Shown: positions 16,828 to 61,355, numbered from the stretch's first letter. The stretch: 64,000 nucleotides of DNA from Gammaproteobacteria bacterium (GCA_022820625.1 JAJEFE010000111.1:2319-66318); one strand, 5' to 3'. The notes: a model not told the origin generated them from the sequence alone. Program-made: numbers and translations.

Positions 16828-18246
16828 CTACTCGAAAATCGTGAGCGCCTCCGACATGCCCATGTCCTCCTTCCAGGCCTCGATGAGCGCCTGGAATTCC
16901 GTAACGAGTTCGGGATAGTCGTCCACGAGATTCTGTTCTGCCAGGCGATCGACGGTGACGTCGTAGAGCACCATGTCGCCGGTGTCCGCGTACCAGAGGA
17001 ACTGCCAGCGGTGAGTGCGCACCGAGTACCCCTCGGCGCGTTCCCCCATGGGCGTGGTCGTCGAACGCCGGTTGTCGGTATACCCGACGAGATGCGTGCG
17101 CTCCGGCATCGAGCGCCCCTCGATCAACGGCAGCAGGGAGTAACCGGGCAGTCCCTGCGGGATTTCGACGCCCGCGAGGTCCAGAATCGTCGGGAAGATG
17201 TCCATGGAAGAGACCAGGCTTGACGTATTGAACGAGTGGCGCAGGCGGTCCTTCCAATAGAAGACCAGGGGCGAGCGGAAGGACTGGTCGTAGAGCCCGT
17301 TCTTGCCGAGCGGCCCACCGTTGCCGAGCAGGTGATCGGTGGCGACTGTCGAGTCCTCGTGATGCTTGTACTCGACATTGGCGTCCTGTTCCCAGCCGTT
17401 GTCGCTGATGTATACGAAGAGCGTGTCGTCCATGAGCCCGTGGCTCTCGATGTGGTCCAGCAGCCGGCCTACGCCGTCGTCCCACCAGGTCACATTGGAG
17501 TAGTAGAGTTTTGCGGACTCCGAGATGTCCTTGTCCTGGTAGTACTTGCGGTAGGTGTATGGCGCGTCGAACGGCACGTGCGGCAGCGAGGGAGCGAACC
17601 AGATGAAGAACGGCTGTTCCCTGTTGCGGTCGATGAAATCGAATACCGGCTCCATCGTCTCGCGCACCAGATCGTTGCCGGCGGCCCCCATCAGTTCCTC
17701 GAAGAAAGTGTCGCCGCCGTAGGCCGACATGTCCCAGCCTTCGCTCATGCCTTCGGAGAAGTGGCCGTTGCGATAGTTGTTCTCCCACCATTTGCCGCCC
17801 TGCCAACTGACGTAGCCGGCCTCGCCGAGCAGCTTCGGCAGCGTGTCGAATTCGCGCATGGCCGCGGCCTTTTCGACCTGGTCCCAGAGGCCCCTCCGCA
17901 CGCTATCGAACGAGGCGTAGTCGGCGTCTTCGCTTCGCCGCCGTTCGACAATCTCGGTTTCGCGCTGAACGTATTGCACCGGGTGTAGGCCAGTGATCAG
18001 CGTGCGCAGGGACGGGCGGCAATAGGTCGCCGTGACGTGGGCGTGAGAGAATGTCACGCCGCCCGCGGCGAGCGCGTCCATCGAGGGGGTGACGACATTC
18101 TCGTCGCCCATGAATCCGAAATAGGGATAGCCGTGATCGTCACCCACGAGCAATACGATATTGGGTGGTCTCTGGGCGATTGCGGCGCCGCAGGCGAAGA
18201 CAAGCACAACGAGTAAGAGCCGATGGATACGCAGCACGCGGTTCAT
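16828..18246 (-). CDS. Sulfatase (formylglycine-type fold) with non-canonical C-R-P-S-L-R maturation motif
   Basis: PPNIVLLVGDDHGY metal site. The motif ATYCRPSLRTLITG keeps sulfatase spacing but has Leu where the CxPxR Arg is expected. ISDNGW. ATG at 18246 is preceded by GGAGG, 25 nt after the GH13 stop. The TTG at 18291 in the ORF track would overlap the GH13 gene. Confidence 0.85.
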   Translation of the reverse strand: MNRVLRIHRLLLVVLVFACGAAIAQRPPNIVLLVGDDHGYPYFGFMGDENVVTPSMDALAAGGVTFSHAHVTATYCRPSLRTLITGLHPVQYVQRETEIVERRRSEDADYASFDSVRRGLWDQVEKAAAMREFDTLPKLLGEAGYVSWQGGKWWENNYRNGHFSEGMSEGWDMSAYGGDTFFEELMGAAGNDLVRETMEPVFDFIDRNREQPFFIWFAPSLPHVPFDAPYTYRKYYQDKDISESAKLYYSNVTWWDDGVGRLLDHIESHGLMDDTLFVYISDNGWEQDANVEYKHHEDSTVATDHLLGNGGPLGKNGLYDQSFRSPLVFYWKDRLRHSFNTSSLVSSMDIFPTILDLAGVEIPQGLPGYSLLPLIEGRSMPERTHLVGYTDNRRSTTTPMGERAEGYSVRTHRWQFLWYADTGDMVLYDVTVDRLAEQNLVDDYPELVTEFQALIEAWKEDMGMSEALTIFE

Positions 18247-18271
18247 CTCGGACCTCCGAATTCGCGGCGCT

Positions 18272-20986
18272 TTATTCCGGCGCCAGTTCAAGCAGCGCGT
18301 CGTCCAGGATCTTCGGATCGCCGGGCTCGCCGCCGCTGAAAAACCAATCAGCGGGCTCGGACCGGAAGTCGATATAGTCGCCTTCGGCCGTAGCCGACCA
18401 TGTGGTCACGTAGACACGGCTTCCCGTCCAATCGTCGACTCCGAGCGCGTCGCCTTCGTAGAACAGGGTGATGGAGCGGCTGTCCCGATCGGCGCTCACC
18501 CGGGGAGAAACGCCCAGCTTGTCGCCCTGGCGGTTTGCGTCGCTGCCCGATGCGAGATAGGTATAGCTGTCCCAGCCACGGGCGAAGTGCGCAAGATCCC
18601 AATCCATCGATTCGGGCGCGCTGGCGTCGAGCAAGGGCAGCACTGTTGCGCCTTCCCGGTCCGGCAGGTCGAAAAACGTGGTCAGCAGAACATTGTCGAA
18701 ACCGTAGGGCGGCAACCAGGGCGTGGTGATTTCCGCCATGGTCAGGGTAAGTTCGAGGTTGCGTCCGGCGGTTCGCGCGCTCAAGGACTCGATCTCGCGC
18801 TGACGCGCGCTGTCGGGGTGCTGCGGTCTCACATATTGCCCGGTCGGGCCGTAGGCATCGTCCGGATCGTCCGCGACCTCGGCCGACAATACCGCATCCG
18901 CCACTCGAGTCGTGTAGTTGACACGCTCGGACAACCCATCGGATTCCGCCGAGTACACCTGCAGGAAGTGGGACGATTCACCGAGATCGCGAACGGGTAC
19001 TTCGATCCGCCATTCGCCCTGATCGTCCGCGGTGAAATCGGTCGCGCGATCGAAGTTGCCGTTCGGGATCAATTGCAAGGGCGCGTTGTCGCGGCTGACC
19101 CTGCCCGTGAGTTCGAAATCCCCGGTGAAGACGGCGCCTTCGATCCCCGACGAATCCACCACGATGTCAAGGTCCACGGCTGACTCGCCGGACGGCGCCG
19201 TCTCGCCGATGGACCGCAGCACGACAGTCGCCCTCGGCGGCAGCCGCAGACTCAGGCGTCCATCCGCGTCGGTGATTGCGGATTCCGCGGCGGGTTCGGC
19301 GAACAGCGCCTCCAGTCGCTGAAACGGCAGCGCGCCGACTTCGATACGATGGGCGAACGCGGTGTGATTTGCGGTGTTAAGCAAGACGATCACGCTCTCG
19401 CCCTGGTATTCGCGCCGGTAAGCCAGCACACCCGGCCCGGCGGACTCGGACGCCAGCACCTCAAGGCCGCCGCGGACCAGCACGGGATGTTCCGCGCGCA
19501 ACGCGGTCAGCCGCTGAAGGTATCGAAAGTGCTCGGAGTTCTCGTCGAACGACCCTTCGACGTTGCGGTAGCCGCCCGCGAACATTGCCATGCGCGATTC
19601 CGGCAGCGCCTGTTCCGTGCCCTGGTAAACGACGGGGATGCCCGGAATCGTGAACAGCAGCGCCAGCGCCTGGCGGAAAGATGCCGGGTGCCCGGCCGCA
19701 AGGAATCTCGCGGTGTCGTGATTGTCGATGAAGTTCGGAATCGTGAACGGATCCGGGTATAGCTCCATATACCGTTCCAGGCGGTAGCCGAGTGTCGCGG
19801 AAGGCGCGCCCCGGGCCAGGGCCCGGTTGATTTCATGATACAGGGGGTAGCCCAGCATGGAATTCGGGCCCAGCATGCCATCGGTCTCCAGGTACGCAAC
19901 CACCCTGCGTTCCCCTGCGTCGTCGTACGGATCGGACACCGCGGTCGCCTCGCCGAAGGTGAGGAAAAACTCCTTGCCGCGCTCACGGGCATGGGCGTAG
20001 ATGCCGTCGTCGTCGCGCAGGAACCGGTTCCAGAACGGGAACGGAACCAGGGAGACGGTATCCATGCGGAACGCGTCCACTCCCACCTCGTCGATCCAGA
20101 ACTTGTAGATCTCCTTGAACTTGGCGATCACCACGGGGTTTTCGGTGTTGATGTCGCCGACATGCCCGAGCGAGTAGTAGTGCTCCTGCTGGAGGCTGGC
20201 GAAGTCGGTAATCGGCGGGGTCCAGTGGTAGATGTCCGCGGCGTAATGCTCGGGATTGAGCCGGTCGATCTGGTTGAATGGGTATTGCACGGGCGCCGGC
20301 TGGTGGGAGTCCGGCTCCAGCAGGTAGAAACCCGCGGCAGTGTCATCGGGGTCGTATTCGCCTTCGTAGGCGTAGAAATTGCCGACGTGATTGGAGATCG
20401 TGTCCTGGATCAGGTACATCCCGCGGCAGTGCAATTCATGGGACAGGCGCTTGTAGTCGTCGAGCGTACCGTAGTGCGGGTCGACTTCCTGGAAATGCAC
20501 CGGCCAGTAGCCGTGCCAGCCGGTGGCCTGGTACGGCGTGCTCCACCACTGGTTGTAAAAGATCGGCGTAGTCCACACGGCCGTCATGCCGAGCCTGCGC
20601 AGGTAGTCGAGGCGGTCGATCACGCCCTGCAGGTCGCCGCCGCTGAAGTGGCTGGGCTGGCTTGGGTCGTATTCGCCGTAGCCCTGGTCGTTATTGGTTG
20701 GATCGCCGTCGTCGAAGCGGTCGGTCATCAGCATGTAGATGACCTGATCGCGCCAGTCGGGGGATGGCAAGTGCTGCAACTGCCGGTCGCCGGACGCGCA
20801 GGTTCCGGCACGGGCCAGGGCATCGGACGCTTGCGCGATGTTCCCGTCGTTCGGGATCGCGTCGGCGGGTTCCGGCGCCGGCACGCCCGAGCCGCGCTCC
20901 ACTTCGACTTCACCCGGAGAGCACGCCGCCAGTGACAGAAAAACGGTAACGAACAGGGTCTTGCGCATCGTGATCAACAATGACAT
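18272..20986 (-). CDS. GH13 alpha-amylase-family lipoprotein (about 900 aa) with a long C-terminal beta-rich extension
   Basis: Lipobox FLSLAAC. GH13 regions I-IV: YLIQDTISNH, GVDAFRMDTV, FLTFGEA, NFIDNHDTARF. The C-terminal ~350 aa resembles glucodextranase-type C-terminal domains (from memory, unverified). Alternative start at 20968. Confidence 0.85.
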   Translation of the reverse strand: MSLLITMRKTLFVTVFLSLAACSPGEVEVERGSGVPAPEPADAIPNDGNIAQASDALARAGTCASGDRQLQHLPSPDWRDQVIYMLMTDRFDDGDPTNNDQGYGEYDPSQPSHFSGGDLQGVIDRLDYLRRLGMTAVWTTPIFYNQWWSTPYQATGWHGYWPVHFQEVDPHYGTLDDYKRLSHELHCRGMYLIQDTISNHVGNFYAYEGEYDPDDTAAGFYLLEPDSHQPAPVQYPFNQIDRLNPEHYAADIYHWTPPITDFASLQQEHYYSLGHVGDINTENPVVIAKFKEIYKFWIDEVGVDAFRMDTVSLVPFPFWNRFLRDDDGIYAHARERGKEFFLTFGEATAVSDPYDDAGERRVVAYLETDGMLGPNSMLGYPLYHEINRALARGAPSATLGYRLERYMELYPDPFTIPNFIDNHDTARFLAAGHPASFRQALALLFTIPGIPVVYQGTEQALPESRMAMFAGGYRNVEGSFDENSEHFRYLQRLTALRAEHPVLVRGGLEVLASESAGPGVLAYRREYQGESVIVLLNTANHTAFAHRIEVGALPFQRLEALFAEPAAESAITDADGRLSLRLPPRATVVLRSIGETAPSGESAVDLDIVVDSSGIEGAVFTGDFELTGRVSRDNAPLQLIPNGNFDRATDFTADDQGEWRIEVPVRDLGESSHFLQVYSAESDGLSERVNYTTRVADAVLSAEVADDPDDAYGPTGQYVRPQHPDSARQREIESLSARTAGRNLELTLTMAEITTPWLPPYGFDNVLLTTFFDLPDREGATVLPLLDASAPESMDWDLAHFARGWDSYTYLASGSDANRQGDKLGVSPRVSADRDSRSITLFYEGDALGVDDWTGSRVYVTTWSATAEGDYIDFRSEPADWFFSGGEPGDPKILDDALLELAPE

Positions 20987-32868: not shown

Positions 32869-33039
32869 TCGATGAACGGGTGTCTCTTGATCCGAACCTT
32901 TGCGCCAGCGGGGCGCATCCTCGGTCTATCGGTCGTCTTCGGGCGGGTGGTCTTTCGCTCCATGCGGCGGTATTTTCGCCTCCGGCTGCCAGGGTCGGCC
33001 CACCATCGCAGGCATCTTGGCCATCGTCGCCTGAACTGG

Positions 33040-34647
33040 ATGTACGCGCAGTGGCGGAGCGGATTGCTTGCGGTCGCAGTTGTGACGGTGGGCACGGTCC
33101 CGGTTGTCACGACTGGCCAGGAGTCCGGCGCGGCGGCGCCGAATATCGTCTTCATCATCACCGACGACATGAGCTGGGCGCACATGGGCGCCTACGGCAG
33201 TGACGAAGTCGATACCCCCAACCTGGACCGCCTGGCGCGGGAGGGTGCGATTTTCGACAACGCCTTTGTCAGCACGCCCTCCTGCACGCCCTCCAGAGCG
33301 TCTATCCTTACCGGGCGGAACGGCTTCGAACTGGAGGAGGGCGCCACTCTGTGGGGATACCTGCCGGCCAAGTTCCCGACGTATACCGAGTTGCTGGCGG
33401 AGCAGGGGTATCGCGTCGGCGCCACGGGCAAGGGCTGGGCGCCCGGGTTTCTCATCGACAGGGACGTGAACCCGGCGGGCCAGCCGTATAACCGGATTCG
33501 GGTCAAGCCCTTCGGCGATCATTTCGAGTCGCTGGCCATGTCGGATATCGACTACGCCGCCAATTTTGAGTCGTTTCTGGATTCGACGGAAGCGGATCGG
33601 CCGTTCGTGTTCTGGATGGGCACGTACGAACCGCACCGAGGATATACGCCCGGCGTGGCGGCGGCGCGCGGCAAGGATACGGCGGTGGCGACAGTCCCGG
33701 CGTTTCTGCCCGACGTACCGGCGGTGCGGGAGGACATCAACGAGTACTACGCCGAAATCGAGCATGTCGATGACCATGTCGGCCGCGTGATGGAGGTGCT
33801 GAACCGGCGGGGCCTGCAGAACGATACATTGGTCGTGTTCACGTCGGACAATGGCATGCCCTTCCCGCGGGCGAAGGCCACGCTCTACGACTACGGCACG
33901 CACATGCCGCTGATCGTGTGGTGGGGGGACAATATCGCCGGCGGGCTACGCATCGACGAGTTCGCCAGTCACACCGATATCGCGCCAACATTTCTGGAGG
34001 TTGCGGGCGTCGAGGCGCCCCCGGAAATGACCGGCCGGAGCCTCCTGCCCCTGTTGACAACCGGAGAGCCTGCTCAGGCATCCCGTGACGCGGTCTACAT
34101 GTACCGGGAACGGCACGGTTTCTACGCCGGTACCGGCGGAATGTCCTTCCCGTCCCGGGCGGTTCGGACGGAGGACTACCTGTTGATCTGGAATGCGCGC
34201 CCGGATGCATTTCCCAGCGATGTCGACGGCGGCCCCACCAAATCGTACATGGAGGAGAACACGGAGGATCCGGCGTCGCTGTACGCGCTCAGTTTTGGAA
34301 CGCGGGACGAATACGAGCTCTACGATGTGCGCGCCGACGAATTCCAGATGAACAATCTGGCGGGGGATGAAGCCTATGAGGAGGTGTTCGAGGGCCTTCG
34401 CTCGCAACTTTTCGCCTACCTCGAGGCTCGCGGGGACCCTCGCATACTGGGGAACGCCGGGCGTTTCCTTTACGCACCCTATTTCGGTGTGGTCTTCAGG
34501 CCGGAGTTATTGCAGTGGGCGCCCGAGCAACAGGGGCAGGAACTTACGTTTGAAGAGCGGCGCGACCTGCTGCAAAAGGCGTATTCAATGATCGGTGAGA
34601 TCGAGTTCTATCAGCGAATGGTCGCCGGACAGGCGGGACGTTTGTGA
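33040..34647 (+). CDS. Sulfatase (Cys-type, canonical CTPSR)
   Basis: PNIVFIITDDMSW, STPSCTPSRASILTGR, FTSDNGMPFPR. Start taken at the ATG before the signal peptide (alternatives 32962 and 32872). Confidence 0.85.
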   Translation: MYAQWRSGLLAVAVVTVGTVPVVTTGQESGAAAPNIVFIITDDMSWAHMGAYGSDEVDTPNLDRLAREGAIFDNAFVSTPSCTPSRASILTGRNGFELEEGATLWGYLPAKFPTYTELLAEQGYRVGATGKGWAPGFLIDRDVNPAGQPYNRIRVKPFGDHFESLAMSDIDYAANFESFLDSTEADRPFVFWMGTYEPHRGYTPGVAAARGKDTAVATVPAFLPDVPAVREDINEYYAEIEHVDDHVGRVMEVLNRRGLQNDTLVVFTSDNGMPFPRAKATLYDYGTHMPLIVWWGDNIAGGLRIDEFASHTDIAPTFLEVAGVEAPPEMTGRSLLPLLTTGEPAQASRDAVYMYRERHGFYAGTGGMSFPSRAVRTEDYLLIWNARPDAFPSDVDGGPTKSYMEENTEDPASLYALSFGTRDEYELYDVRADEFQMNNLAGDEAYEEVFEGLRSQLFAYLEARGDPRILGNAGRFLYAPYFGVVFRPELLQWAPEQQGQELTFEERRDLLQKAYSMIGEIEFYQRMVAGQAGRL

Positions 34648-36233
34648 TGGGGATTCGGTTAGGTGGAATGTTGGCCCCGCGGCAGAGTGGCTGCACGGTT
34701 GAGGTATTCGCGAGGCAGCGAGCCAGCGCCGCCAGACGGCCGGCCGGTCCCGGCGCGACGCGGGGCATTTGCCACGGGCTGCTGGTCTCGTGCGTTCTTG
34801 CGAGCCTGTGGCTCATGTCCGGTTGCACGGACACGGCGGATACGGTTGATATGCCTGATGCGGCCGACACGTCCGGTGCGGCCACACCCGGTGCGGTCGA
34901 TGAGCGGCCGCCCAACTTCGTCGTTCTGTTCGCGGATGACCTGGGCTACGGCGACCTTGGCAGTTTCGGGCATCCCACCATCAAGACGCCCCACCTGGAC
35001 CGGTTGGCCCGGGAAGGGCTGAGGCTCACACAATTCTATGTTGCCGCATCGCTGTGTACGCCGAGCCGGGCGGCCCTGATGACGGGCCGGCTGCCGGTCC
35101 GAAACGGCATGGCGGGGCGTCGCGGCGTGTTGTTCCCGGATTCCTCGGGGGGATTGCCGGCGGCGGAGACCACGATCGCCGAGGCGCTCAAGGCTCACGG
35201 CTACGCCACTGCCACGGTCGGCAAGTGGCACCTGGGCCACATCCCGCGATATCTGCCGACCGCGCACGGGTTTGACGAGTACTTCGGCATCCCCTATTCC
35301 AATGACATGCGCCCCGAGAACAACTGGGCCTATGCCAGCGAGAATTTTCCAGTCCTGCCGTTAATGGAAGGAACGGAAGTTATCGAACGAATCTACGATC
35401 AGAGCCTGCTCACCGAACGCTACACGCAGCGGGCGATCGAGTTCATCGAGGCGAATCGGTCGCAGCCGTTTTTCCTCTATTTGCCCTACACGGCGCCACA
35501 TGTCCCGCTGATGGTCACCCCCGAACGGGCCGGCACCAGCAAGCGCGGCCTGTACGGCGACGTGGTCGAGGAGATCGACTGGAGCGTGGGAGAAATCGCC
35601 GCTGCTCTGGAGCGGCTCGGGCTGGCGGAGAACACCCTGGTCATCTTCACCAGCGACAACGGCCCCTGGGGTTGGGCCGGACTCGACGGCGGATCGGCCG
35701 GTCTTCTGCGCGGCGCCAAGGGTAGCCCGTGGGAAGGTGGATTCCGTGTGCCCACAATTGCTTGGATGCCCGGCACGGTGCCGGCCAATGTCGCGTCGGA
35801 TGCGCTCGGAACTACGATGGATTTGTTTCCGACCTTCCTGAACATGGCAGGGGGGGAGGCGGGCAACTACCCGGACCTGGACGGTATCGACATAACGGAG
35901 ACTTTCCTGGGCCTTCGCGCCGTACGCGAGCGGGTCATCTACTACCGACAGGAAGACTTCGTGGCCTACCGGCACGGCGCCTGGAAGCTCTTCGTCAACG
36001 ATCCTAATCCCTGGTCGGACGAAATCCAGGACAGTGACCTGCCGCTGCTCTACAACCTTGAAGTCGACCCGTCCGAAGCGTTCAACGTCGCGGAGGAAAA
36101 CCCCGAAGTGGTGGCGCGGATCACGGCGCTCGCCGCCGCCCACGAGGATTCCGTAGAAAGAGTCCCTTCCCAACTTATCGGGATATTGCCCGAATTCCAG
36201 GAAGAATATGATCGCTACCACAACAGTCAGTAG
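34647..36233 (+). CDS. Sulfatase (arylsulfatase A / GalNAc-6-sulfatase-like, canonical CTPSR), lipoprotein
   Basis: TGATG 1-nt overlap with the upstream sulfatase. Lipobox LWLMSGC. PNFVVLFADDLGYGDLG, ASLCTPSRAALMTGR, GKWHLG, FTSDNGPW. Confidence 0.85.
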   Translation: MGIRLGGMLAPRQSGCTVEVFARQRASAARRPAGPGATRGICHGLLVSCVLASLWLMSGCTDTADTVDMPDAADTSGAATPGAVDERPPNFVVLFADDLGYGDLGSFGHPTIKTPHLDRLAREGLRLTQFYVAASLCTPSRAALMTGRLPVRNGMAGRRGVLFPDSSGGLPAAETTIAEALKAHGYATATVGKWHLGHIPRYLPTAHGFDEYFGIPYSNDMRPENNWAYASENFPVLPLMEGTEVIERIYDQSLLTERYTQRAIEFIEANRSQPFFLYLPYTAPHVPLMVTPERAGTSKRGLYGDVVEEIDWSVGEIAAALERLGLAENTLVIFTSDNGPWGWAGLDGGSAGLLRGAKGSPWEGGFRVPTIAWMPGTVPANVASDALGTTMDLFPTFLNMAGGEAGNYPDLDGIDITETFLGLRAVRERVIYYRQEDFVAYRHGAWKLFVNDPNPWSDEIQDSDLPLLYNLEVDPSEAFNVAEENPEVVARITALAAAHEDSVERVPSQLIGILPEFQEEYDRYHNSQ

Positions 36234-36490
36234 CCGCGACAGTCGGTAGCTGCGGCCCTGACCGGGGCGAATGTCGGGTAGGAAATCCCTACCGAATCGT
36301 CGTGCCGGCAAATTGGTCGTGGCGCCATATGCCATTTGTGCCTCGTGGCGCGCTCGAAATACCCCAAAGGGAGCGCAAAACTCGTGATATGACATAGAAA
36401 AGAGTATGGAATGGTCCCGGTGCGTGAGCTATATTCGATTTCAGATTCACTGCGGACGGCGCGGTGCGCCAAGATGCGGAGCAACCGATT

Positions 36491-36967
36491 ATGCGTAACT
36501 TGATGGTTTCAGCCCTTGTCCTGCCACTGTCTTTTGCTGGAGGGTCAGGAGCCCAGGAGCCACCCGGCGCCCGAGAGTCTCCTGCCTCGCGCCAACTGCA
36601 ATTTCAGACTGAGGACACCCTGGATTGGCGGGAGCTACTGGCAAAACTCCATTCCGACTTTGACGTTGAGATCAGGATACGCGACTCTTCGCCACGGTTG
36701 TCCGTACATTTGGCGAGGGAGACGGAGAGCGACGGCCACGGTCTTCTGGGCCTGACATGGCAACATCGCGAGATTGCCAACCTCGAACTCGTTGAATTGG
36801 GAGAAAGGTTTTTCGTCATAGCGAATGCTACGGGTCAAGTGCATTCGAAAGCTCCCCTTGGGCGCTGGCACCTTGAAGAAGAAGGCTCCCTTTCAGAATT
36901 TCATTTCTACTCCGGTCCCGAGGTCGGCGCCTTGATCACCAATGTCGAGGTATACGCGGGTCCGTAA
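36491..36967 (+). CDS. Hypothetical secreted protein (orphan) in a lower-GC insert
   Basis: Signal-like MRNLMVSALVLPLSFAGGSGAQE. No family recognised. Composition visibly less GC-rich than the flanking sulfatase genes. Confidence 0.45.
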   Translation: MRNLMVSALVLPLSFAGGSGAQEPPGARESPASRQLQFQTEDTLDWRELLAKLHSDFDVEIRIRDSSPRLSVHLARETESDGHGLLGLTWQHREIANLELVELGERFFVIANATGQVHSKAPLGRWHLEEEGSLSEFHFYSGPEVGALITNVEVYAGP

Positions 36968-36992
36968 CCAAGCGGGACCCCGCAACGCTGGG

Positions 36993-37199
36993 ATGCCTTC
37001 CGATACCAAAACCCGAGGTCACCTCGCATTGATCGCAGCCTACGCAACGGTGGGCATTCCGACATTGGCGGTCGGCGGTGTGCTTTCCGGTACCATCCAT
37101 GTTCAAGACGTGGAACCTCTGCTCAACGCGGCGTGGTTGATTGTCGGTCCCATTGCGGGGCTTGTTTTCGGGTACTACTTCAGCGCCACCCGACAGTGA
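36993..37199 (+). CDS. Hypothetical small membrane protein (2 predicted TM helices)
   Basis: HLALIAAYATVGIPTLAVGGVL and AAWLIVGPIAGLVFGYYF hydrophobic stretches. ORF only, no homology evidence. Confidence 0.3.
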   Translation: MPSDTKTRGHLALIAAYATVGIPTLAVGGVLSGTIHVQDVEPLLNAAWLIVGPIAGLVFGYYFSATRQ

Positions 37200-37216
37200 G
37201 GACACGTCGCCACAAT

Positions 37217-38995
37217 ATGGGTGAGCGACAAAACGCACGCGCAGGACGGCTTGTCGCGCCAGTCCTTGTGCCGGTTCCGGTCCTCGCGACCCTGTCGGTT
37301 TTCATCGCCCTGTCGGTGCCGGTTTCCGCCTGGGGGCAGTCGCCGGAAGTAGCTGATCGCCCCAACATCCTCTGGCTGGTCGCCGAGGACATGAGCCCCA
37401 ACCTCGCCTCGTTCGGGGACCCGACCGTTTCGACGCCCAACCTCGACCGGCTTGCGGCCGAGGGCGTGCGCTACATCAACGTGTTCTCAGTTTCCGGGGT
37501 CTGCTCCCCCAGCCGGGCCGCGCTGGCGACGGGAATGTATCCCACCAGCATCGGCGCCCACCACATGCGTACCACTTACCAGCAACCCGAAGCCAGGGAA
37601 ATGGGCATTATCGACTACGAGGTCGTTCCGCCGCCCCACGTCAGGATGGTCAGCGAGATCATGCGCGAGCACGGCTACTACGCGAGCAACAATTCCAAGG
37701 AGGACTACCAGTTCCACCCGTCATTGATGGCCTGGGACGAAACCAGCCTGTTCGCCCATTGGCGCAACCGGCCCGAAGGCAAGCCGTTTTTCTCGGTATT
37801 CAACTTCGGCGTGACGCACGAGGGCCAGATCTGGAACCCGGCGACGACATGGAATCTTCGCTACGGCCGGGAGGTGTTTCCGCCGGACAGGAACCAGGAG
37901 TTGGTGTGGATACCCTTCCCTCCGGGCGTGGAAAAGGATTTGTACATTCCCGCGGATCTCCAGGTCCCCGTGCCCCCCTACCTGCCCGACACGCCGCCCG
38001 TCATCAAGGACATCCGCCGGATGTATTCCAATATCGTGGAGATGGACAGCTACGTCGGGGTCGTGCTGAACCAGTTGGAAGAAGACGGATTGTTCGACGA
38101 AACCATCATCGTCTGGTACACCGACCACGGCGGTCCGCTGCCGCGCCAGAAGCGGCTGCTTTACGACTCGGGCCTGCGCGTGCCGATGATCGTACGCTAT
38201 CCCGGCCGGGAGCGCGCCGGCGAGGTGGACGACCGGCTGATCAGTTTCGTCGATTTCGCGCCGACGTTGCTGTCGCAGGCGGGCATCCCGGCTCCCGGCT
38301 ACATGCAGGGCAGGGCATTCGACGGCGAATACGCGGAGGAGGGCGAACGCCCCTACATCTTCGCCGCGGCCGACCGCTTCGACGGCCACTACGACACGAT
38401 CCGGGCGGCACGGGACAAGCGGTACAAGTACCTGAGGAATTTTCAGCCCGAGCGCGGCTACTACCTGCCCCTGGATTATCGGGAACAAATGGCGACCATG
38501 CAGGAACTGTTGAGGCTGAGGGGCGCCGGCGAGCTGAACGAAATCCAGTCTCAGTGGTTTCGCTCGTCCAAACCCGAAGAGGAGTTCTTCGACACCTGGA
38601 ACGACCCGCATGAGTTTAACAACATAGCCGACGACCCGGTCCATGCCGAGCGACTGGCCGAATTTCGCCATGCCCTGCAGTTATGGATGGACGATGTCGG
38701 CGACATGGGCTTTATTCCCGAGACCGACTTGATCGACCAGTTCTGGCCCGGCAGTCAACAACCGGTCACGGCTGACCCTAGTGTTGAAAGCGCCGGCTCG
38801 GAAGTGACGATCTCCAGCGCCACGGAAGGCGCCTCCATCGGGTATCGGGGTCAGGGTCAGGGTGAAGCCGCACCCTGGTCAGGCTGGCATTTATACTCCG
38901 TACCTCTGCGCCTCGAGCCAGGCGAGCGAATCGAAGTGGTGGCCCATCGCATCGGCTATGCCCCCAGCGAGACAGTGACCTACACGCATCGTTGA
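37217..38995 (+). CDS. Sulfatase (Cys-type, canonical CSPSR) with a C-terminal extra domain
   Basis: PNILWLVAEDMSP, VSGVCSPSRAALATGMYP, WYTDHGGPLPRQK. Signal peptide after the ATG at 37217. Confidence 0.85.
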   Translation: MGERQNARAGRLVAPVLVPVPVLATLSVFIALSVPVSAWGQSPEVADRPNILWLVAEDMSPNLASFGDPTVSTPNLDRLAAEGVRYINVFSVSGVCSPSRAALATGMYPTSIGAHHMRTTYQQPEAREMGIIDYEVVPPPHVRMVSEIMREHGYYASNNSKEDYQFHPSLMAWDETSLFAHWRNRPEGKPFFSVFNFGVTHEGQIWNPATTWNLRYGREVFPPDRNQELVWIPFPPGVEKDLYIPADLQVPVPPYLPDTPPVIKDIRRMYSNIVEMDSYVGVVLNQLEEDGLFDETIIVWYTDHGGPLPRQKRLLYDSGLRVPMIVRYPGRERAGEVDDRLISFVDFAPTLLSQAGIPAPGYMQGRAFDGEYAEEGERPYIFAAADRFDGHYDTIRAARDKRYKYLRNFQPERGYYLPLDYREQMATMQELLRLRGAGELNEIQSQWFRSSKPEEEFFDTWNDPHEFNNIADDPVHAERLAEFRHALQLWMDDVGDMGFIPETDLIDQFWPGSQQPVTADPSVESAGSEVTISSATEGASIGYRGQGQGEAAPWSGWHLYSVPLRLEPGERIEVVAHRIGYAPSETVTYTHR

Positions 38996-43219: not shown

Positions 43220-44584
43220 ATGACACGCCTTCCCGCTTTGGTTCCCCTGGTCATCGCTGCCGCTCTTGTCGGAATTTCGGCCGGCGCTCAGGAACAGGGC
43301 CGCCCGAACATCTTGCTCTTCGTCGCCGACGACATGACCTGGAGCGACGCAGGCGCGCTGGGCAATCCGATGGTCCACACTCCGAATCTGGACCGGCTGG
43401 CCCGGGAGGGAACCACCTATACGCACATGTTCACCGCGGCCGCCATGTGCTCGCCGACGCGCCACATGATCTACACCGGACAGTATCCGGTCCGGAGCGG
43501 CGCCTACCCGAACCACGCGCATGCATACGAGGACACAAGGAGCGTCGCGCACTACCTGACGGACCTGGGCTATCGCGTCGGACTGGCGGGCAAGAGGCAT
43601 GTGGCTCCGGAGAGCGTCTATCCATTCGAGAGGGTCGGCGACTGGTCCCTCGACTTCGATCCGATCGGCGAATTCATCGGTCGCGACCCGGAGCAACCCT
43701 TCGCCCTGATGGTCGGTTCGAACGAACCGCATCTGCCGTGGGACAAGGGCGATCCTTCGCGCTACGACGCGACGCAACTGGAGCTGCCGCCCTATTTCGT
43801 CGACACCCCCGAAACCCGGGATGCGCTGACCCGGTACTACGCCGAGATCACCTACATGGACGGCGAACTCGGCCGTATTCTCGACCTGCTCGAACAGCAT
43901 GGCGTGCACGAAAACACGCTGACCATGTTCTACAGCGAGCAGGGGATCGGCGGCCCCTTCGCCAAGTGGTCGCTCTACGATGCGGGCGTCAGGGCATCCC
44001 TCGTCATTCGCTGGATCGATCGGGTACCTGCCGGCAGGACATCGTCCGCCCTGCTCCAGGTCAACGATCTGCTTCCAACCTGGATCGAGGCCGCCGGGGG
44101 GATACCGGCTCCCGAGATCGAAGGACGGAGCATGCTGGATCTGCTCCTTGAGGCAGGCCCGACGCACCGCGACGTCGTTTACGGCATCCAGACCACGACC
44201 GGCATCGTCGCGAACCTGGAACCCTATCCGATTCGGTCGATCCGCGACGAGCGATACAAGCTGATCTGGAACCTGGTTCCAGGCAATCGGTTCACGAACC
44301 TCATCACCGAGGAAGGCAACGGCGGCTTCTACTTCTCCTGGCGCGACCTGGGCGAAACCGACGCCCACGCGAGGGAACTGTTCGAACGCTACCAGCACCG
44401 GCCCGAGTTCGAGTTCTTCGACCTGGAAGCGGACCCTCACGAGATGACGAACCTTGCGGAAATGGCGGAACACCAGGAACGGATCGCCGCCATGCTGGAG
44501 CAGCTACAAGCGTGGATGCGGGATCAGGGCGACCTGGGGCTGCAGACCGAGATCGAGGCGCCGACGCGTCAAGGGTCGCCGTAG
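43220..44584 (+). CDS. Sulfatase (Cys-type, canonical CSPTR)
   Basis: PNILLFVADDMTW, AAAMCSPTRHMIYTGQYP. Signal peptide. GAGG 8 nt before the ATG. Confidence 0.85.
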   Translation: MTRLPALVPLVIAAALVGISAGAQEQGRPNILLFVADDMTWSDAGALGNPMVHTPNLDRLAREGTTYTHMFTAAAMCSPTRHMIYTGQYPVRSGAYPNHAHAYEDTRSVAHYLTDLGYRVGLAGKRHVAPESVYPFERVGDWSLDFDPIGEFIGRDPEQPFALMVGSNEPHLPWDKGDPSRYDATQLELPPYFVDTPETRDALTRYYAEITYMDGELGRILDLLEQHGVHENTLTMFYSEQGIGGPFAKWSLYDAGVRASLVIRWIDRVPAGRTSSALLQVNDLLPTWIEAAGGIPAPEIEGRSMLDLLLEAGPTHRDVVYGIQTTTGIVANLEPYPIRSIRDERYKLIWNLVPGNRFTNLITEEGNGGFYFSWRDLGETDAHARELFERYQHRPEFEFFDLEADPHEMTNLAEMAEHQERIAAMLEQLQAWMRDQGDLGLQTEIEAPTRQGSP

Positions 44585-44656
44585 CCGGGTCGGAAGCGGA
44601 AGGATACGAACGCAGGTCGGCGCCGCAATAGTCCCGGCAAACGGGTGGTTTCGGGA

Positions 44657-46066
44657 CTACTCCGCCTGATACCGGTCCTGCGACAGGTGATGCTGCACCA
44701 CGCCACCGTATGGAAAGCCCGGCGTTTCGGTGCGGGCGGACTCGAACAGCCGGTTCATTCGCTGCACGAGCTCCGGATGATCGTCCGCCACGTCACTCGA
44801 TTCGGAAATATCCTGGTCCAGGTTGTATAGCTCCGTTGGCGAATCGACGCCGTAGCGCACCGCCTTCCATTCGCCCATTCTCGCGGATTGGCGAAATCCC
44901 CCGTCCGGCAGGGTTTGGAACCAGCCGCTCAGTTGAATCTCCCAGTTCAATACTTCGTGTTCCCGCTGCTCTTCGCCCAGCAGGAGCGGCAAAATCGATA
45001 TGCCATCGGTTTGCTCCGGGGTTTCAACGCCGGCTATGTCGGCGAAGGTGGGCATTAGATCCTGAAAGGCGGAGATATGCCCGGTCGTCGTTCCGGCCTC
45101 GACTCGTCCAGGCCAATACGCGATCAGCGGCACCCGAACACCGCCTTCGTACAGGTCTCTCTTCCCGCCCCTGAGTGCTCCATTGCTGTCGAAAAACTCA
45201 AGGTCGTGCCCCCCGGCCGCAAAGTGCGCGCCATTGTCGCTGGTGAACAGCACCAGGGTGTTGTCCAGCACGCCCATCTCCTCGAGCTTGTTCAGCAGGC
45301 GCCCGACCTGTCTGTCGAGCAGCGTGATCTTGGCCGCATGCACTCTTTCGATCTCCGGCCAGCCCCGGTCTGCGTAGAGATCGGTATCACGGAGCGGGCC
45401 TTCGAACGAGTGCGGCGCCCGGTAGGACATGAACAGGAAAAAGGGGCGCTCCCTGTCCATCGCGTCGAGAAATTCGATTGCGAAATCCGTTCGAAAATGG
45501 TCCTTGCCGTCGTATTGACGGTAATCGTAGGGGACGAATTCCTGGTCTCCGTTAACCCATAGCCGTTGCGGGGGAAACTCCCTGCCGCCGAAACGAGCGC
45601 TCCACTGTTCCTGCACGGCATAGTCGAAACCGTGGCCCCAGGCCCAGGTTTCCACGTCATCGGGGTTATCCAGATGCCACTTGCCGACGAAGGCCGTCTG
45701 GTATCCGGCTCCCTTCAACATCTCGCCAAGGGTGAATTCGTCCCTGTCGAGGGCGACGCCTTCCCACCTGTCGTTTCCAAAAAAGCCGGCATTGCCGCGG
45801 ATGGCCACGTTTGCCGCGCTCTTGCCGGTCAGAAGGACCGCTCGCGCCGGGGAGCAGACGGCATTTCCGGCGTAGAAGTCGGTAAACCGCATGCCTTGCG
45901 CCGCCAGCCTGTCCAGTTCCGGCGTCTGGATGACCGTTTGCCCGTACGAGCCGAGTTCGTTATAGCCCAGGTCGTCGGCCAGCAGGAAAACGATATTCGC
46001 CCGCGTCTGCTGGGCCTGTATGCCGACAGAGAGCGGCATAAGAACGAAAAGCAGAATCCAACGCAT
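44657..46066 (-). CDS. Sulfatase (Cys-type, canonical CSPAR)
   Basis: ANIVFLLADDLGYNELG, GNAVCSPARAVLLTGK, GKWHL, FTSDNGAH. The start ATG shares 1 nt with the GH13 stop (TGATG). Confidence 0.85.
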   Translation of the reverse strand: MRWILLFVLMPLSVGIQAQQTRANIVFLLADDLGYNELGSYGQTVIQTPELDRLAAQGMRFTDFYAGNAVCSPARAVLLTGKSAANVAIRGNAGFFGNDRWEGVALDRDEFTLGEMLKGAGYQTAFVGKWHLDNPDDVETWAWGHGFDYAVQEQWSARFGGREFPPQRLWVNGDQEFVPYDYRQYDGKDHFRTDFAIEFLDAMDRERPFFLFMSYRAPHSFEGPLRDTDLYADRGWPEIERVHAAKITLLDRQVGRLLNKLEEMGVLDNTLVLFTSDNGAHFAAGGHDLEFFDSNGALRGGKRDLYEGGVRVPLIAYWPGRVEAGTTTGHISAFQDLMPTFADIAGVETPEQTDGISILPLLLGEEQREHEVLNWEIQLSGWFQTLPDGGFRQSARMGEWKAVRYGVDSPTELYNLDQDISESSDVADDHPELVQRMNRLFESARTETPGFPYGGVVQHHLSQDRYQAE

Positions 46067-57100: not shown

Positions 57101-58648
57101 GTGAACGGCGTCAGAGCTAGGATCAAACACAAATCGGTACGCGATCGGGATGGCCCACGGTCAGGGCTGGCCGCTTTCGCGGCCTTTTTGCTATTGCAGA
57201 CATTCGCCGGTGGGGCAGGGGCGCAGGATTCGGCCCCTCAAGAATCCCCCAACGTACTGCTCATCATTGTCGATGACCTTCGCCCGCAACTGGGCGCCTA
57301 CGGTTTCGACGTCATGCGCACGCCGAACATCGATCGTCTCGCCGAGGAGGGATTGCTGTTCCGTCGAGCGTACGCCCAGTGGCCCGTATGTGGTCCGTCG
57401 CGGGCCAGCCTGCTGAGCGGACTGCGGCCCGACACTACCGGCATCTACAACAACGGTCGGCGGCTGGATTCTGCGGACACCGAGATCGTTTCCCTGCCGG
57501 CGCACTTCAGGCGCAACGGCTACCGGACGCTTTCCGTCGGAAAGGTCTACCACTCTCGGAACGACGATCTGGGCGCCTGGAGCGAACAACCCCTCAATAC
57601 CGCGCCGAACGACGACAATTGGCAAGGGTATGGCTCTCCCGAGACCCATGAGTTGAGGCTTCGCCTGTGGGAGGAAGCGCTGGCGGAGGATCCGAATGCG
57701 CTGTTCCACCAATTCAACGCAGGCGCCGTGGAAAGAGCGGACCTGCCCGACAGCGAGTATCGCGACGGCAAGATCGCCGACATGGCCGTGGAAGTGCTGC
57801 GCGAAAACGCAGGCCAACCGTTCTTCGCCGCAGTGGGATTCGTCAAGCCGCACTTGCCGTTCGCCGCGCCGAGCCGGTATTGGGATCTGTACGATCGCGC
57901 CGACCTGCAGCCGATGGCCGGTTCGACCCGGCCTGATGGCACGACGGAGATTCCCTACATCTACAGTGAACTGGAGTCCTATCGGGGCATTGGGTCGGAC
58001 GACGAACTGACCGGGGAGCAGGTGCTGGAGCTGATTCACGGATATTTCGCCGCGGTCAGCTTCGTCGACGCCCAGGTCGGCAAGCTGCTGGACGAACTGG
58101 ACCGTCTGGACATCAGGGACAACACCATCGTCGCCCTGGTGGGCGACCACGGATTCCATCTGGGCGAGCAGGGCATCTGGGCGAAGCACAGCCTGTTCGA
58201 ACTGTCGTCGCAGACGCCGCTGATTGTCAGCGCTCCCGGTCAGGCGACTGCCGGCGCCTCCACGAACGCGCTGGTGGAGCTGGTCGACATCTACCCCAGC
58301 CTGGTGGAACTGGCCGGGCTCGATCCGTCGCCTCGTTTCGACGGTGAGAGTTTCGTGCCGCTGATGGACGACCCGGACACGCCCTTCAAGGATGCGGCGC
58401 TGAGCCAGTATCGGCATTTCATGGAGCCGTATCGGGAAATCATGGGATACAGCATCCGGACGGATCGGTACCGGTTTTCGCTCTGGCGGGATAACGCGCG
58501 CCAGGGCGCAGCATTTGCAAGGGAGTTGTACGACCTGGGCGTCGATGGCAGCGAGTCGGTCAACCTTGCCCACGATCCGGCGTACGAGGTCACAGTACAG
58601 GACTTGACGAATCGAATCGACGCTTTACGCGGAGGCAACACGCCCTGA
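57101..58648 (+). CDS. Sulfatase (iduronate-2-sulfatase-like, canonical CGPSR)
   Basis: PNVLLIIVDDLRPQLGAYG, QWPVCGPSRASLLSGLRPDTTG, GKVYH, LVGDHGFHLGE. GTG start. Confidence 0.85.
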   Translation: MNGVRARIKHKSVRDRDGPRSGLAAFAAFLLLQTFAGGAGAQDSAPQESPNVLLIIVDDLRPQLGAYGFDVMRTPNIDRLAEEGLLFRRAYAQWPVCGPSRASLLSGLRPDTTGIYNNGRRLDSADTEIVSLPAHFRRNGYRTLSVGKVYHSRNDDLGAWSEQPLNTAPNDDNWQGYGSPETHELRLRLWEEALAEDPNALFHQFNAGAVERADLPDSEYRDGKIADMAVEVLRENAGQPFFAAVGFVKPHLPFAAPSRYWDLYDRADLQPMAGSTRPDGTTEIPYIYSELESYRGIGSDDELTGEQVLELIHGYFAAVSFVDAQVGKLLDELDRLDIRDNTIVALVGDHGFHLGEQGIWAKHSLFELSSQTPLIVSAPGQATAGASTNALVELVDIYPSLVELAGLDPSPRFDGESFVPLMDDPDTPFKDAALSQYRHFMEPYREIMGYSIRTDRYRFSLWRDNARQGAAFARELYDLGVDGSESVNLAHDPAYEVTVQDLTNRIDALRGGNTP

Positions 58649-58812: not shown

Positions 58813-59379
58813 ATGAAAAACTATCTATTCGGATTCCTGGCTTCCTCAGCCATTGCGCTACCCGCTTACGGGGCGCTCCAGGCCGGCGATGATGCGCCAT
58901 TGTTCGAGGCGACCGCTTCGCTGGCGGGCGAGGCGTTCGACTTTTCGCTTCGTGACGCGCTCGACGAAGGACCGGTCGTGGTCTATTTCTATCCGTCAGC
59001 TTATACGCGCGGCTGCAACATTCAGGCGCGTGAGTTTGCCGACAATATGGAAGCCTTCAACGCCGCAGGCGCCAGCGTGATCGGGGTCTCGCTCGACAGT
59101 GTCGAGCGGTTGAACGACTTCTCCGCGGATCCTGAGTATTGCGCAGGCAAGCTTGCGGTTGCGTCCGATGCGAGCGGCGAGATTGCAAGGTCCTACGACC
59201 TCAACATCCGCGAGGGCAATCCGGAAGCGACGGATACGCGCGGGATCGCGATCGGCCACGACTTTGTCGAGCGCACGACCTTTATCGTGACGTCCGACGG
59301 CAAGATCGCACAGACGATCAGCGATCTTGCTCCGGCCGACAACGTTCTGGAGGCGCTGGAAGCGGTTCAGGGCCAGTAG
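58813..59379 (+). CDS. Secreted peroxiredoxin (AhpC/TSA family, Bcp/PrxQ-like)
   Basis: Signal MKNYLFGFLASSAIALPAYG. VVVYFYPSAYTRGCNIQAREF peroxidatic-Cys motif. ORF-track residues 1-51 (58660..) are discarded. Confidence 0.8.
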   Translation: MKNYLFGFLASSAIALPAYGALQAGDDAPLFEATASLAGEAFDFSLRDALDEGPVVVYFYPSAYTRGCNIQAREFADNMEAFNAAGASVIGVSLDSVERLNDFSADPEYCAGKLAVASDASGEIARSYDLNIREGNPEATDTRGIAIGHDFVERTTFIVTSDGKIAQTISDLAPADNVLEALEAVQGQ

Positions 59380-59525: not shown

Positions 59526-60146
59526 TTACTCCAGTACCTGCACGGCGTAGTTGAGTACGCCTTCTCCGTCCACGCGGATTCGATACGACTCGACGAAGAT
59601 CTTGCCGACGATCTCCTGCTGGGGATTGAGCACGAATATCCCGGGGTGGGGGATGCCGTACGTCCGGTCACCGGGCTGGTGGTCTTCGTTCAGGATGCCG
59701 AGCGCCACCATGGTTGCGGTATCGATGTCGGAGATGAACGGGTAGGTGATCCCTTCGTCTTCAACGAACGCCTGTTGCAGTTCCGGGGCGTCGTAAGTAA
59801 TGACGACGATACCGATCCCGGCCTGTTCGAAAGCATCTACGTGCTGTTGCAGCTCCACGAGCTGGTTCTTGCAGAAGGGTCACCAGTCGGCCGAACGATT
59901 GGCGATGAAAATAGCGCCGTTTTCGCCCATAAATGCGTCGATCGAGGAGATTTCCTCTCCTTCGTAGAGCGCGCGTATTGGCGGAAACTGATCGCCGATG
60001 GCCAGACCCGGGTCGAACCCGTCGGTATCCTCGGCGATGAACATCTCGTCCAGGTTCGGTTGGGCCATGAGCTGCGTACTCCAGGCCTGGGCCAATGCCG
60101 CCAGCAGCGCCAAGCCCCCTGCCGGGGAGCGCCAGTTATTCTTCAT
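59526..60146 (-). CDS. Candidate selenoprotein: secreted AhpC/TSA-redoxin-family thiol oxidoreductase with a U-P-F-C redox motif (in-frame TGA at 59880..59882)
   Basis: ORFs 59880..60146 and 59526..59858 are in the same frame. Joined, they read ...AIFIANRSADW-[TGA]-PFCKNQLVELQQHVDAFEQAGIGIVVITYD...FISD..., one continuous thioredoxin-fold redoxin. The TGA falls where homologues carry the first Cys of WCP(F/Y)C. N-terminal signal peptide. A hairpin follows the TGA. Confidence 0.55.
59842..59873 (-). promoter_or_regulatory. SECIS-like mRNA hairpin downstream of the in-frame UGA
   Basis: mRNA reads UGA CCC UUC UGC AAG AAC CAGCUC GUG GAGCUG CAA CAG CA. There is a perfect 6-bp stem CAGCUC/GAGCUG (59850..59864) with apical loop GUG starting 22 nt 3' of the UGA. 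It can be extended by the pairs UGC/GCA and G-C (+7..+38). Confidence 0.4.
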
Positions 60147-60248: not shown

Positions 60249-61355
60249 CTAGTGAGCCAACGCCTGTACCACTTGTTCGGCGATGGCCAGCGATGACGTG
60301 AGTCCCGGCGATTCGATGCCGTACAGGTTGACCAGCCCCGGTATCCCATGCGCGGCAGGCCCCTGGATCATGAAGTCGCCCGGCGGATCGCCGGGGCGGA
60401 TGAGCTTGGCGCGCACGCCGACGTATCCGGGCGCCAGCCGGTCGCGGTCCACCTTGGGCCACCAGGTCCGGATGGCGTCGTGGAATCGGTCCCGGCGCGA
60501 CTCGTCCACCGCGTAGTCGGGCGCGTCGATCCACTGGACGTCCGGACCGAATCGCGCCTGGCCATTGAGATCGAGGGTGACGTGCACGCCCAGTCCGCCG
60601 GGTTCCGGCACCGGGTACACCAGGTGGCGAAACGGGTGTTTGCCCCGGTAGACGAAGTAGTTGCCCTTGGCGAAACGTATGCGGGGGACAAGCCGCTGCG
60701 GCAGGCCGTCGATGCGCCGCGCAACGTGTTCCGCGGCCAGTCCGGCAGAGTTGATGACCGTCCTTGCCTTGACTTCGACCGGCTCGCCCGCCGATCGGAT
60801 GCGCAACCTGAAGCCTTCCCCGTCCACCTGCGCCCGCAAAAACTCGCATCGCAGGGCGAGGGTTCCTCCGGCTGCCTCCAGGTCGCCCTGAAACGACATC
60901 ATCAGCCCGTGGCTGTCGACAATTCCGGTGGAGGGTGAAATCAGGGCCGATGTACAAACGACCGCAGGCTCCAGTCTTGCCGCCCCCGCCTGGTCCATGA
61001 TCGTCAGATCGTCGACTCCGCTTGCCTGCCCCTGGGCCTGGATCGCCTCCAGTTCCGCGTGTTGGGTTTCGTTCGCCGCGACGATCAACTTGCCGCAGCG
61101 CCGATGGCGGATCGATCGATCCCGGCAGTAGCGGTACAGCAGTTCCTTGCCGCGAACGCACAGCTTCGCTTTCAGACTGTCGGGCGGGTAGTGAATGCCC
61201 GCGTGGATGACCTCGGAATTGCGCGACGAGGTTTCTTCGCCGATCCGCCGGTGCCGCTCGATCACGAGCACGTCGCGGCCGTCGATTGCCAGCGCCCGGG
61301 CAATGGCGAGACCCGCAACGCCCGCGCCGATGACTACCGCATCCTGCGACTCCAT
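60249..61355 (-). CDS. FAD-dependent oxidoreductase (DAO family, L-2-hydroxyglutarate oxidase-like)
   Basis: AVVIGAGVAGLAIARAL, ERHRRIGEETSSRNSEVIHAGIHYPP, VNLYGIESPGLTSSLAIA. Confidence 0.8.
   Translation of the reverse strand: MESQDAVVIGAGVAGLAIARALAIDGRDVLVIERHRRIGEETSSRNSEVIHAGIHYPPDSLKAKLCVRGKELLYRYCRDRSIRHRRCGKLIVAANETQHAELEAIQAQGQASGVDDLTIMDQAGAARLEPAVVCTSALISPSTGIVDSHGLMMSFQGDLEAAGGTLALRCEFLRAQVDGEGFRLRIRSAGEPVEVKARTVINSAGLAAEHVARRIDGLPQRLVPRIRFAKGNYFVYRGKHPFRHLVYPVPEPGGLGVHVTLDLNGQARFGPDVQWIDAPDYAVDESRRDRFHDAIRTWWPKVDRDRLAPGYVGVRAKLIRPGDPPGDFMIQGPAAHGIPGLVNLYGIESPGLTSSLAIAEQVVQALAH

Follow-up and report, generated by a model that had tools for sequence, protein, structure and literature searches.

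The 64,000-nucleotide stretch analysed here (hereafter the window; Gammaproteobacteria bacterium, GCA_022820625.1, JAJEFE010000111.1:2319-66318) carries on its minus strand, at 59526..60146, a redoxin gene split by an in-frame TGA, which an earlier prediction made from the sequence alone had singled out as a possible unannotated selenoprotein gene. The two open reading frames (ORFs) into which it falls, 59880..60146 and 59526..59879, share one frame, and their only interruption is the TGA at 59880-59882. In the direction of reading, 88 codons are followed by the TGA (59882-59880), 117 further codons and a TAA (59528-59526). The N-terminal 88 residues (60146..59883) end in ...FIANRSADW, so that the TGA lies in the context ...NRSADW-(TGA)-PFCKNQ..., and the 117 codons after it read PFCKNQLVELQQ...VQVLE. 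When the stop was replaced by Cys, the resulting product of 206 residues matched the Pfam AhpC-TSA model at 71.6 bits (cut-off 26) over residues 50-180, and also the Redoxin model. Because the AhpC-TSA match runs across the TGA, one domain spans it. Translation of the region thus agrees with the original prediction, which had described two minus-strand ORFs joined into a single secreted AhpC/TSA-type protein; the export signal was judged by eye (Table 1), and at the N-terminus homologues have either a hydrophobic anchor or a lipobox-like end (for example, LLAGC or AVAAC). In the source metagenome, gene callers cut the gene into products of 88 and 110 amino acids. ORF finders start the latter at the GTG at 59856-59858 (minus strand), which is also the apical loop of the hairpin described below; the corresponding fragments in relatives begin a few codons past the xxC, at Met or at a TTG read as Leu.

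Homologues show what the TGA replaces. A protein search recovered 11 full-length homologues, 49-64% identical, with W-C-P-[YF]-C at the position of the TGA, together with about 40 C-terminal fragments of 113-116 amino acids that start right after the xxC (for example, MAQFVQLQ...) and one N-terminal fragment whose final residues are ...RSVDW. Two more entries, P0009 and P0056 (the latter representing 154 member sequences), read W-W-P-x-C; these are full-length but wrong, presumably through translation of the TGA as Trp under a code table in which TGA encodes Trp. Full-length Cys forms, fragments and W-W-P-x-C entries together are the trace of gene callers meeting a selenoprotein gene. Scanning one genome per species gave 80 loci, in which the aligned codon was TGA in 47 and TGC or TGT in 33. 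With the window there are 48 TGA forms, and 49 with a sixth close relative (L081) that was fetched separately. The original prediction had placed the TGA at the first Cys of a W-C-P-(F/Y)-C motif, and the full-length homologues do run uninterrupted through the motif with Cys at that column, which is otherwise occupied by TGA. It had also named a strain-unique TGA lacking a conserved hairpin as the mark of a recent nonsense mutation; a TGA shared by 47 of 80 species-level loci, with the hairpin conserved, is the opposite pattern.

The TGA-form carriers nearest to the window are Ca. Rariloculaceae metagenome-assembled genomes (MAGs), at 82-96% protein and 83-91% DNA identity, the latter indicating different species from that of the window; a literature search on Rariloculaceae returned nothing relevant. 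Other gammaproteobacterial carriers are Woeseia, Halioglobus and other Halieaceae, and Pseudohongiella and other Pseudomonadales, and one carrier, Ca. Litorirhabdus singularis IMCC14734, is cultured. Beyond the Gammaproteobacteria, TGA forms occurred in one Alphaproteobacteria MAG and in Acidobacteria (Bryobacterales). A neighbour-joining tree placed the window inside an all-TGA clade and divided the Cys forms into four or more groups, of which two lie inside TGA clades. One MAG, CAJXPR01, holds two Cys-form paralogues (L072 and L076) on different contigs.

The reading frame beyond the TGA is maintained. At least 115 in-frame codons follow it in 49 of 49 TGA forms (L081 included), and the Cys forms have 115-127. 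Among the window and its six close relatives, ratios of nonsynonymous to synonymous substitution rates (dN/dS) were 0.05-0.26 downstream of the TGA and 0.03-0.24 upstream, and differences were concentrated at third codon positions. By this comparison the stretch after the TGA is evidently translated and under purifying selection. The open frame and its low dN/dS contradict a recent nonsense mutation, while purifying selection past the TGA, combined with the single domain, contradicts two independent genes. In L081 (10380-10420; ENA contig ctg359492_3x_l), the family's C-terminal sequence is lost about 12 codons before the end (...RVDGDRRPQLRP...) and about 30 extra codons follow; the simplest account is a frameshift introduced by assembly at low coverage (3x).

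Downstream of the TGA, we found the proposed selenocysteine insertion sequence (SECIS)-type hairpin much as predicted: a 6-base-pair (bp) stem, CAGCUC/GAGCUG, capped by GUG (59856-59858) and preceded by a spacer of 15 nucleotides (nt; 59865-59879). The first loop G lies 22 nt past the A of the UGA, leaving 21 nt between UGA and loop. The suggested lower-stem extension did not hold up, as it is not conserved and RNAalifold kept only the short upper helix. A published model of bacterial SECIS elements (bSECIS; PMC13188914) allows a loop of 3-9 nt with G in position 1 or 2, a stem of 4-16 bp, a UGA-to-loop spacing of 16-37 nt and a minimum free energy of at most -7.5 kcal/mol. The window element fits in its GUG loop, 6-bp stem, G-first loop and 21-nt spacing, and is borderline in energy (-6.7 kcal/mol for the hairpin alone, -7.4 in 36 nt and -10.3 in a 48-nt context). 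Judged from this one sequence, the hairpin stays within chance expectation for DNA of 63% GC. Since folding of that one sequence does no better than shuffled sequences, the significance of the hairpin derives from comparison with relatives only.

That comparison ties the hairpin to the TGA. A hairpin of at least 5 contiguous bp, starting 15-16 nt past the TGA and with a G-first loop (GUG, GUU, GUC, GGG or GUA), was present in 48 of 48 TGA forms; among the Cys forms, 10 of 33 had a comparable hairpin, its loop usually CAG or CAA. We aligned 44 TGA-form sequences and 33 Cys forms and scored covariation over the helix columns 21-27/31-37, which were paired in 89% of TGA forms versus 72% of Cys forms. 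The covariation score for TGA forms was 0.409, against 0.161±0.018 for shuffles (0 of 500 reached 0.409), and controls in which the 3' partner was slid out of register gave at most 0.139; for Cys forms the score was 0.162 against 0.125 for shuffles. Three base pairs change on both sides with pairing kept in the TGA forms: 21-37 (GC 15, UA 12, CG 10), 24-34 (GC 34, AU 8) and 25-33 (CG 26, UA 17, none broken, versus 20 of 33 broken in Cys forms). Pairs 22-26 were unbroken throughout the TGA forms, and RNAalifold independently picked the same short upper helix. Two of the covarying pairs fall at synonymous Gln/Leu positions, and the third joins a third codon position with the first position five codons on. 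Cys forms that encode the peptide QLQQL often do so with non-complementary codons (for example, CAACTC..CAACTA), and thus the stem is not forced by the Q-L-x-Q-L peptide. Of the folding check suggested with the original prediction, then, the single-sequence half failed to separate the hairpin from shuffles, while relatives show a covarying, TGA-linked element.

Some Cys forms retain a hairpin. In a Halioglobus MAG (L007:10247-10306), the codon is TGC, the Sec-type CAATTC-GTG-CAATTG is kept, and the sequence falls within a group of TGA forms, suggesting that a switch from selenocysteine (Sec) to Cys took place recently and left a 'fossil' SECIS. The hairpin is also kept in L033 and in a Pseudohongiella Cys clade (L047, L061, L072 and L077), the latter retaining the 6-bp stem with CAG or CAA loops.

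Genes of selenium metabolism were seen beside one homologue. In a Woeseia sp. MAG (SI072_bin43, JABIUH010000436.1; locus L009, 6888-11873), the TGA-form redoxin sits in a small 'selenium cluster' with a selD gene immediately upstream, a second gene with an in-frame TGA and, 1.2 kb downstream, a tRNA-Sec-like gene (Table 1); the cluster also holds a CoA-transferase gene. That selD was the sole match when the window and the 80 loci were searched by tblastn with E. coli SelA, SelB and SelD as probes, and NCBIfam confirmed it (Table 1). A protein search with the Woeseia SelD returned thousands of matches, none attributable to Rariloculaceae, and Rfam and ARAGORN searches found nothing in the window. 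A crude scan of the window for further TGA-split genes gave no candidate with a redox motif, and it also missed the known gene. For the organism of the window, the Sec machinery is assumed.

To place the protein structurally, we compared it with solved and modelled folds. Its nearest solved sequences are BCP/PrxQ peroxiredoxins (PDB 5iiz, E = 2.6e-6), and in the 5iiz alignment Cys92 falls on the peroxidatic Cys, Sec89 on the conserved Thr of the peroxiredoxin (Prx) TxxC motif, S85 on the Pro and a P-H-P on the Arg. A test for a typical peroxiredoxin of the BCP/PrxQ kind failed, with PxxxTxxC and the Arg not kept and a score of 30.2 bits against the NF006960 cut-off of 140. As the catalytic Thr and Arg are not kept, 'redoxin' is a more accurate name than 'peroxiredoxin'. 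AlphaFold modelling of a Cys homologue (59% identical; pLDDT 85.9) puts the CxxC at the N-terminal end of helix 90-100. A Foldseek search with that model returned peroxiredoxins for all of the top 50 matches; target-normalised TM scores were 0.55-0.85 among the matches listed and about 0.75-0.85 for chains of similar length. On this modelling, the protein is a Prx scaffold bearing a thioredoxin-type U-x-x-C centre. In acidobacterial TGA forms the redoxin is fused to the periplasmic domain DsbD_N (31.9 bits, cut-off 25). The homologues of about 355 residues with a C-terminal DsbD_N (PF11412) are P0057, P0060-P0063 and those at L038:781, L040:8788 and L042:2689; the last three, from Acidobacteria/Bryobacterales MAGs, have the TGA at the active site of the fusion.

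Combining these criteria, we conclude that the locus is, with high confidence, a recoded selenoprotein gene of a known kind that has gone unannotated. The conclusion follows from comparison rather than from the single sequence: the Sec/Cys column, the covarying TGA-linked hairpin and purifying selection past the TGA. The preference in the original prediction for recoding over two genes or a dead gene is thereby upheld by a hairpin in 48 of 48 TGA forms, an intact frame and dN/dS of 0.05-0.26. Very likely, too, 59526..60146 (minus strand) is one gene for a Sec-containing, exported, Prx-fold thiol/selenol-disulfide oxidoreductase. As we picture it, a ribosome would meet the UGA at codon 89, where the hairpin 15 nt downstream, with its 6-bp stem and loop beginning G-U, would recruit SelB·GTP·Sec-tRNA(Sec), and Sec would be inserted in place of termination. 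The N-terminal signal would direct the protein to the cell envelope, where the pair U89 and C92, placed at the N-terminus of helix alpha-1, may cycle between selenol/thiol and selenenylsulfide, with Sec89 as the probable attacking nucleophile; the UxxC centre would reduce oxidised envelope substrates and probably be recharged by a DsbD-type relay.

Several observations weigh against this interpretation. The window hairpin is weak when taken alone: in 36-, 48- and 66-nt contexts, comparison with dinucleotide shuffles gave z = -0.05, -0.26 and +1.7. Rfam, at gathering and at permissive thresholds, gave no match at the site, a null of no weight for or against, given that none of the bacterial SECIS elements here was matched by an Rfam model. 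No selA, selB, selD or tRNA-Sec lies within the 64-kb window. In the Woeseia cluster, the tRNA-Sec candidate scores below the Rfam gathering threshold (43.7 versus 47 bits) and its 5' acceptor strand pairs poorly; the gene may be either an atypical tRNA-Sec or a partial copy. The function is read from the motif and the domain fusion only, with no conserved gene neighbourhood behind it, and a peroxidase role for Sec89 is a live alternative.

How far can the TGA be explained without Sec? Were it an ordinary stop, as annotation pipelines treat it, a recent nonsense mutation would have left a pseudogene or a gene truncated to its 88-residue N-terminal piece, and every gene caller does split the gene there. 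The same-column TGA in 47 species-level genomes from several families, the frame beyond each TGA (at least 115 codons, in the length range of the Cys forms), the low dN/dS after it and the placing of the stop exactly on the catalytic Cys column make this extremely improbable. Two functional genes, an 88-amino-acid secreted peptide and a 110-amino-acid protein starting from the GTG at 59858, have in their favour that this GTG stands 8 codons past the TGA and is used by gene callers. We give the idea hardly any credence, because the two pieces make up a single AhpC-TSA domain (residues 50-180) between them, the C-terminal piece would possess neither active site nor export signal, caller-chosen starts vary among relatives (ATG, Met, or TTG read as Leu), the GTG itself is the conserved hairpin loop and Cys forms are uninterrupted. 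A third proposal accepts readthrough and replaces Sec by another residue, for example Cys, Trp or Gly delivered by a near-cognate or suppressor tRNA, or whatever amino acid a mischarged tRNA-Sec-like tRNA would carry. Machinery for Sec was not seen for the window's genome (the 64-kb window being what was searched), the tRNA-Sec-like gene near the redoxin in Woeseia has atypical features, and two database entries give Trp, although the last most simply reflects a gene caller's code table. HTCC2080 and HIMB55 are presumably members of the OM60/NOR5 group, which includes Halieaceae. These two and HTCC2143, all marine gammaproteobacteria, are listed as Sec-utilising (Table S2, PMC5029168). Readthrough without Sec is also countered by a hairpin whose position and G-U loop match SelB-dependent elements, by a codon that alternates with Cys codons only, as Sec does, and by the selD and second selenoprotein gene flanking the Woeseia homologue; we consider it very unlikely.

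The choice of function is less one-sided. As a peroxidase, the selenoprotein would use Sec89 to attack peroxide and Cys92 to resolve it, either in cooperation with the Prx next door or alongside it. Selenols react fast with peroxides, the fold and the nearest solved structures are those of peroxiredoxins, and a secreted Prx adjoins the gene in the window's clade. Against these stand the replacement of the Prx catalytic Thr by Sec and of the Prx Arg by P-H-P, a score of 30 bits with the NCBIfam BCP model (cut-off 140), the thioredoxin-like UxxC at the helix N-terminus in the homologue model, a DsbD_N fusion that points to a thiol-disulfide relay, and a Prx neighbour conserved in close relatives only. 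On balance a peroxidase is an unlikely but serious candidate. The best reading, held with moderate confidence, is an envelope thiol/selenol-disulfide oxidoreductase that would be fed by a DsbD-type relay.

Selenoproteins of this general description have been reported. 'Prx-like protein' selenoproteins with PF00578 and UxxC were found in the Sargasso Sea (22 sequences; PMC1088965); the Global Ocean Sampling (GOS) survey listed 'Prx-like 1' (pfam00578, UxxC) with 225 selenoproteins and 2,740 Cys homologues (GOS Table 2, PMC2398784); and a 2026 review lists a 'Prx-like thiol:disulfide oxidoreductase' (PF00578, UxxC/UxxU) as 'predicted with high confidence' (PMC13188914, Table 1). The window protein resembles Prx-like 1 in its PF00578 match, its UxxC rather than TxxU, its many Cys homologues, its marine bacterial origin and a function that is predicted. 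The fit to the class, whose reference member is WP_010940744.1 (Geobacter), is by these published features. The window clade differs in its specific motif, RSxDW-U-P-[FY]-C, in its export signal or anchor and in its occurrence in aerobic Gammaproteobacteria (Rariloculaceae, Woeseia, Halieaceae and Pseudohongiella) and Acidobacteria. With the Sec-peroxiredoxins (TxxU; PrxU NF040737 and Prx-SUH NF045827) and BCP/PrxQ it shares the fold and a Cys92 at the peroxidatic position; unlike them, it has its Sec three residues earlier, on the Thr position, does not keep the Pro, Thr or Arg, and scores far below the model cut-offs. As in SelL-related proteins (NF040769) and ResA/TlpA/DsbE, an exported thioredoxin-superfamily protein carries a W-C/U-x-x-C centre, and the SelL-related and ResA-type models are its best or near-best weak NCBIfam matches. 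Identity with either group was rejected, NF040769 giving 31.9 bits where its cut-off is 120 (among 18 relatives the best reached E = 6e-12, still far short of it) and NF002854 25.4 bits against 170, with peroxiredoxins as the nearest structures. No NCBIfam model, selenoprotein-specific ones included, reaches its cut-off for the window protein or the 18 relatives, and the gene consequently stays split in public annotation.

The hairpin can likewise be set beside known elements. Like the bSECIS consensus and the element of E. coli fdhF, it is a stem-loop directly 3' of the UGA and within the coding region, and differs from them in being very short and in having no conserved lower stem or bulged U. 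In fdhF the UGA and the loop G-U are about 2 nt closer together than in the window. A loop of 3-5 nt starting G-U, a 21-nt spacing and a 6-bp upper stem agree with the published consensus (the bSECISearch model; PMC13188914, Fig. 2).

More tentatively, and at slightly less than even odds, we suggest that these genes may form a distinct clade of exported Prx-fold selenoproteins for which there is no curated model. It would be marked by RSxDW-U-P-[FY]-C and by an unusually small 6-bp SECIS whose G-U loop fixes a Val codon, and would be spread among aerobic marine, sediment and probably sponge-associated Gammaproteobacteria and among Acidobacteria; several branches would have started from Sec, which Cys then replaced repeatedly, leaving 'fossil' hairpins. 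If so, the DsbD_N fusion in Acidobacteria would suggest that one branch of the envelope reducing pathway depends on selenium. The gene leaves knowledge of recoding and of selenoprotein families unchanged, and extends the use of Sec to a lineage of Gammaproteobacteria probably associated with sponges. Annotation of the source metagenome, and of each relative looked at, wrongly shows two ORFs in place of the gene; for the cultured IMCC14734, NCBI lists only a 115-amino-acid 'redoxin domain-containing protein'. A family model combined with a simple SECIS pattern would correct dozens of genomes, and the natural Sec/Cys series is well suited to asking why an envelope redoxin benefits from selenium.

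Table 1. Features of the redoxin locus in the window and of the Woeseia locus L009.
Feature	Position	Strand	Basis or remark
Candidate selenoprotein gene, 206 codons + TAA; active site W88-U89-P90-F91-C92	59526..60146	-	Single frame, one domain, full-length Cys homologues
In-frame UGA, residue 89, probably read as Sec	59880..59882	-	Sec/Cys column, open frame, dN/dS
TGC codon, Cys92, second residue of UxxC centre	59871..59873	-	Invariant in homologues; PDB 5iiz alignment
Putative N-terminal export signal MKNNWRSPAGGLALLAALAQAWSTQLMAQ	60060..60146	-	Judged by eye from sequence
SECIS-type hairpin CAGCUC-GUG-GAGCUG, 6-bp stem, loop GUG 59856-59858	59850..59864	-	Sequence, comparison
Secreted BCP-type Cys peroxiredoxin, convergent neighbour	58813..59379	+	AhpC-TSA 88.9 bits; PxxxTxxC motif, PSAYTRGC
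DAO-family oxidase, upstream	60249..61355	-	Best NCBIfam match L-2-hydroxyglutarate oxidase, below cut-off
TGA-form redoxin	L009 10001-10519		Homologue of window gene
selD, immediately upstream of redoxin	L009 8649-9689		NCBIfam NF002098, 525 bits, cut-off 299
AhpD-related gene, in-frame TGA in CFYUT motif	L009 6888-8015	-	NF041238
tRNA-Sec-like gene, anticodon UCA, 1.2 kb downstream of redoxin	L009 11791-11873	-	ARAGORN tRNA-SeC

Gene neighbourhoods differ between clades. The convergent neighbour in the window is an ordinary Cys peroxiredoxin, as the original prediction had said; its further idea that the two form a periplasmic pair found no support, synteny being confined to the closest relatives. 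The Prx-redoxin-DAO arrangement recurs only in six Rariloculaceae relatives (L001-L005 and L081), and the Prx neighbour is absent in Ca. Litorirhabdus singularis and two unclassified metagenome contigs, where the neighbours are unrelated, and in the remaining loci.

The rest of the window is dominated by sulfatases (at least 8) and glycoside hydrolases, at 16828-18291, 32872-38995, 43220-46066, 57101-58648 and nearby. The glycoside hydrolases include several of the GH13 alpha-amylase family (two of about 900 amino acids with glucodextranase-like C-termini), GH97 and GH43. With a TonB-dependent receptor, MFS and ABC sugar transporters and a tryptophan-halogenase-family gene also present, the window looks like a region for the utilisation of sulfated polysaccharides.

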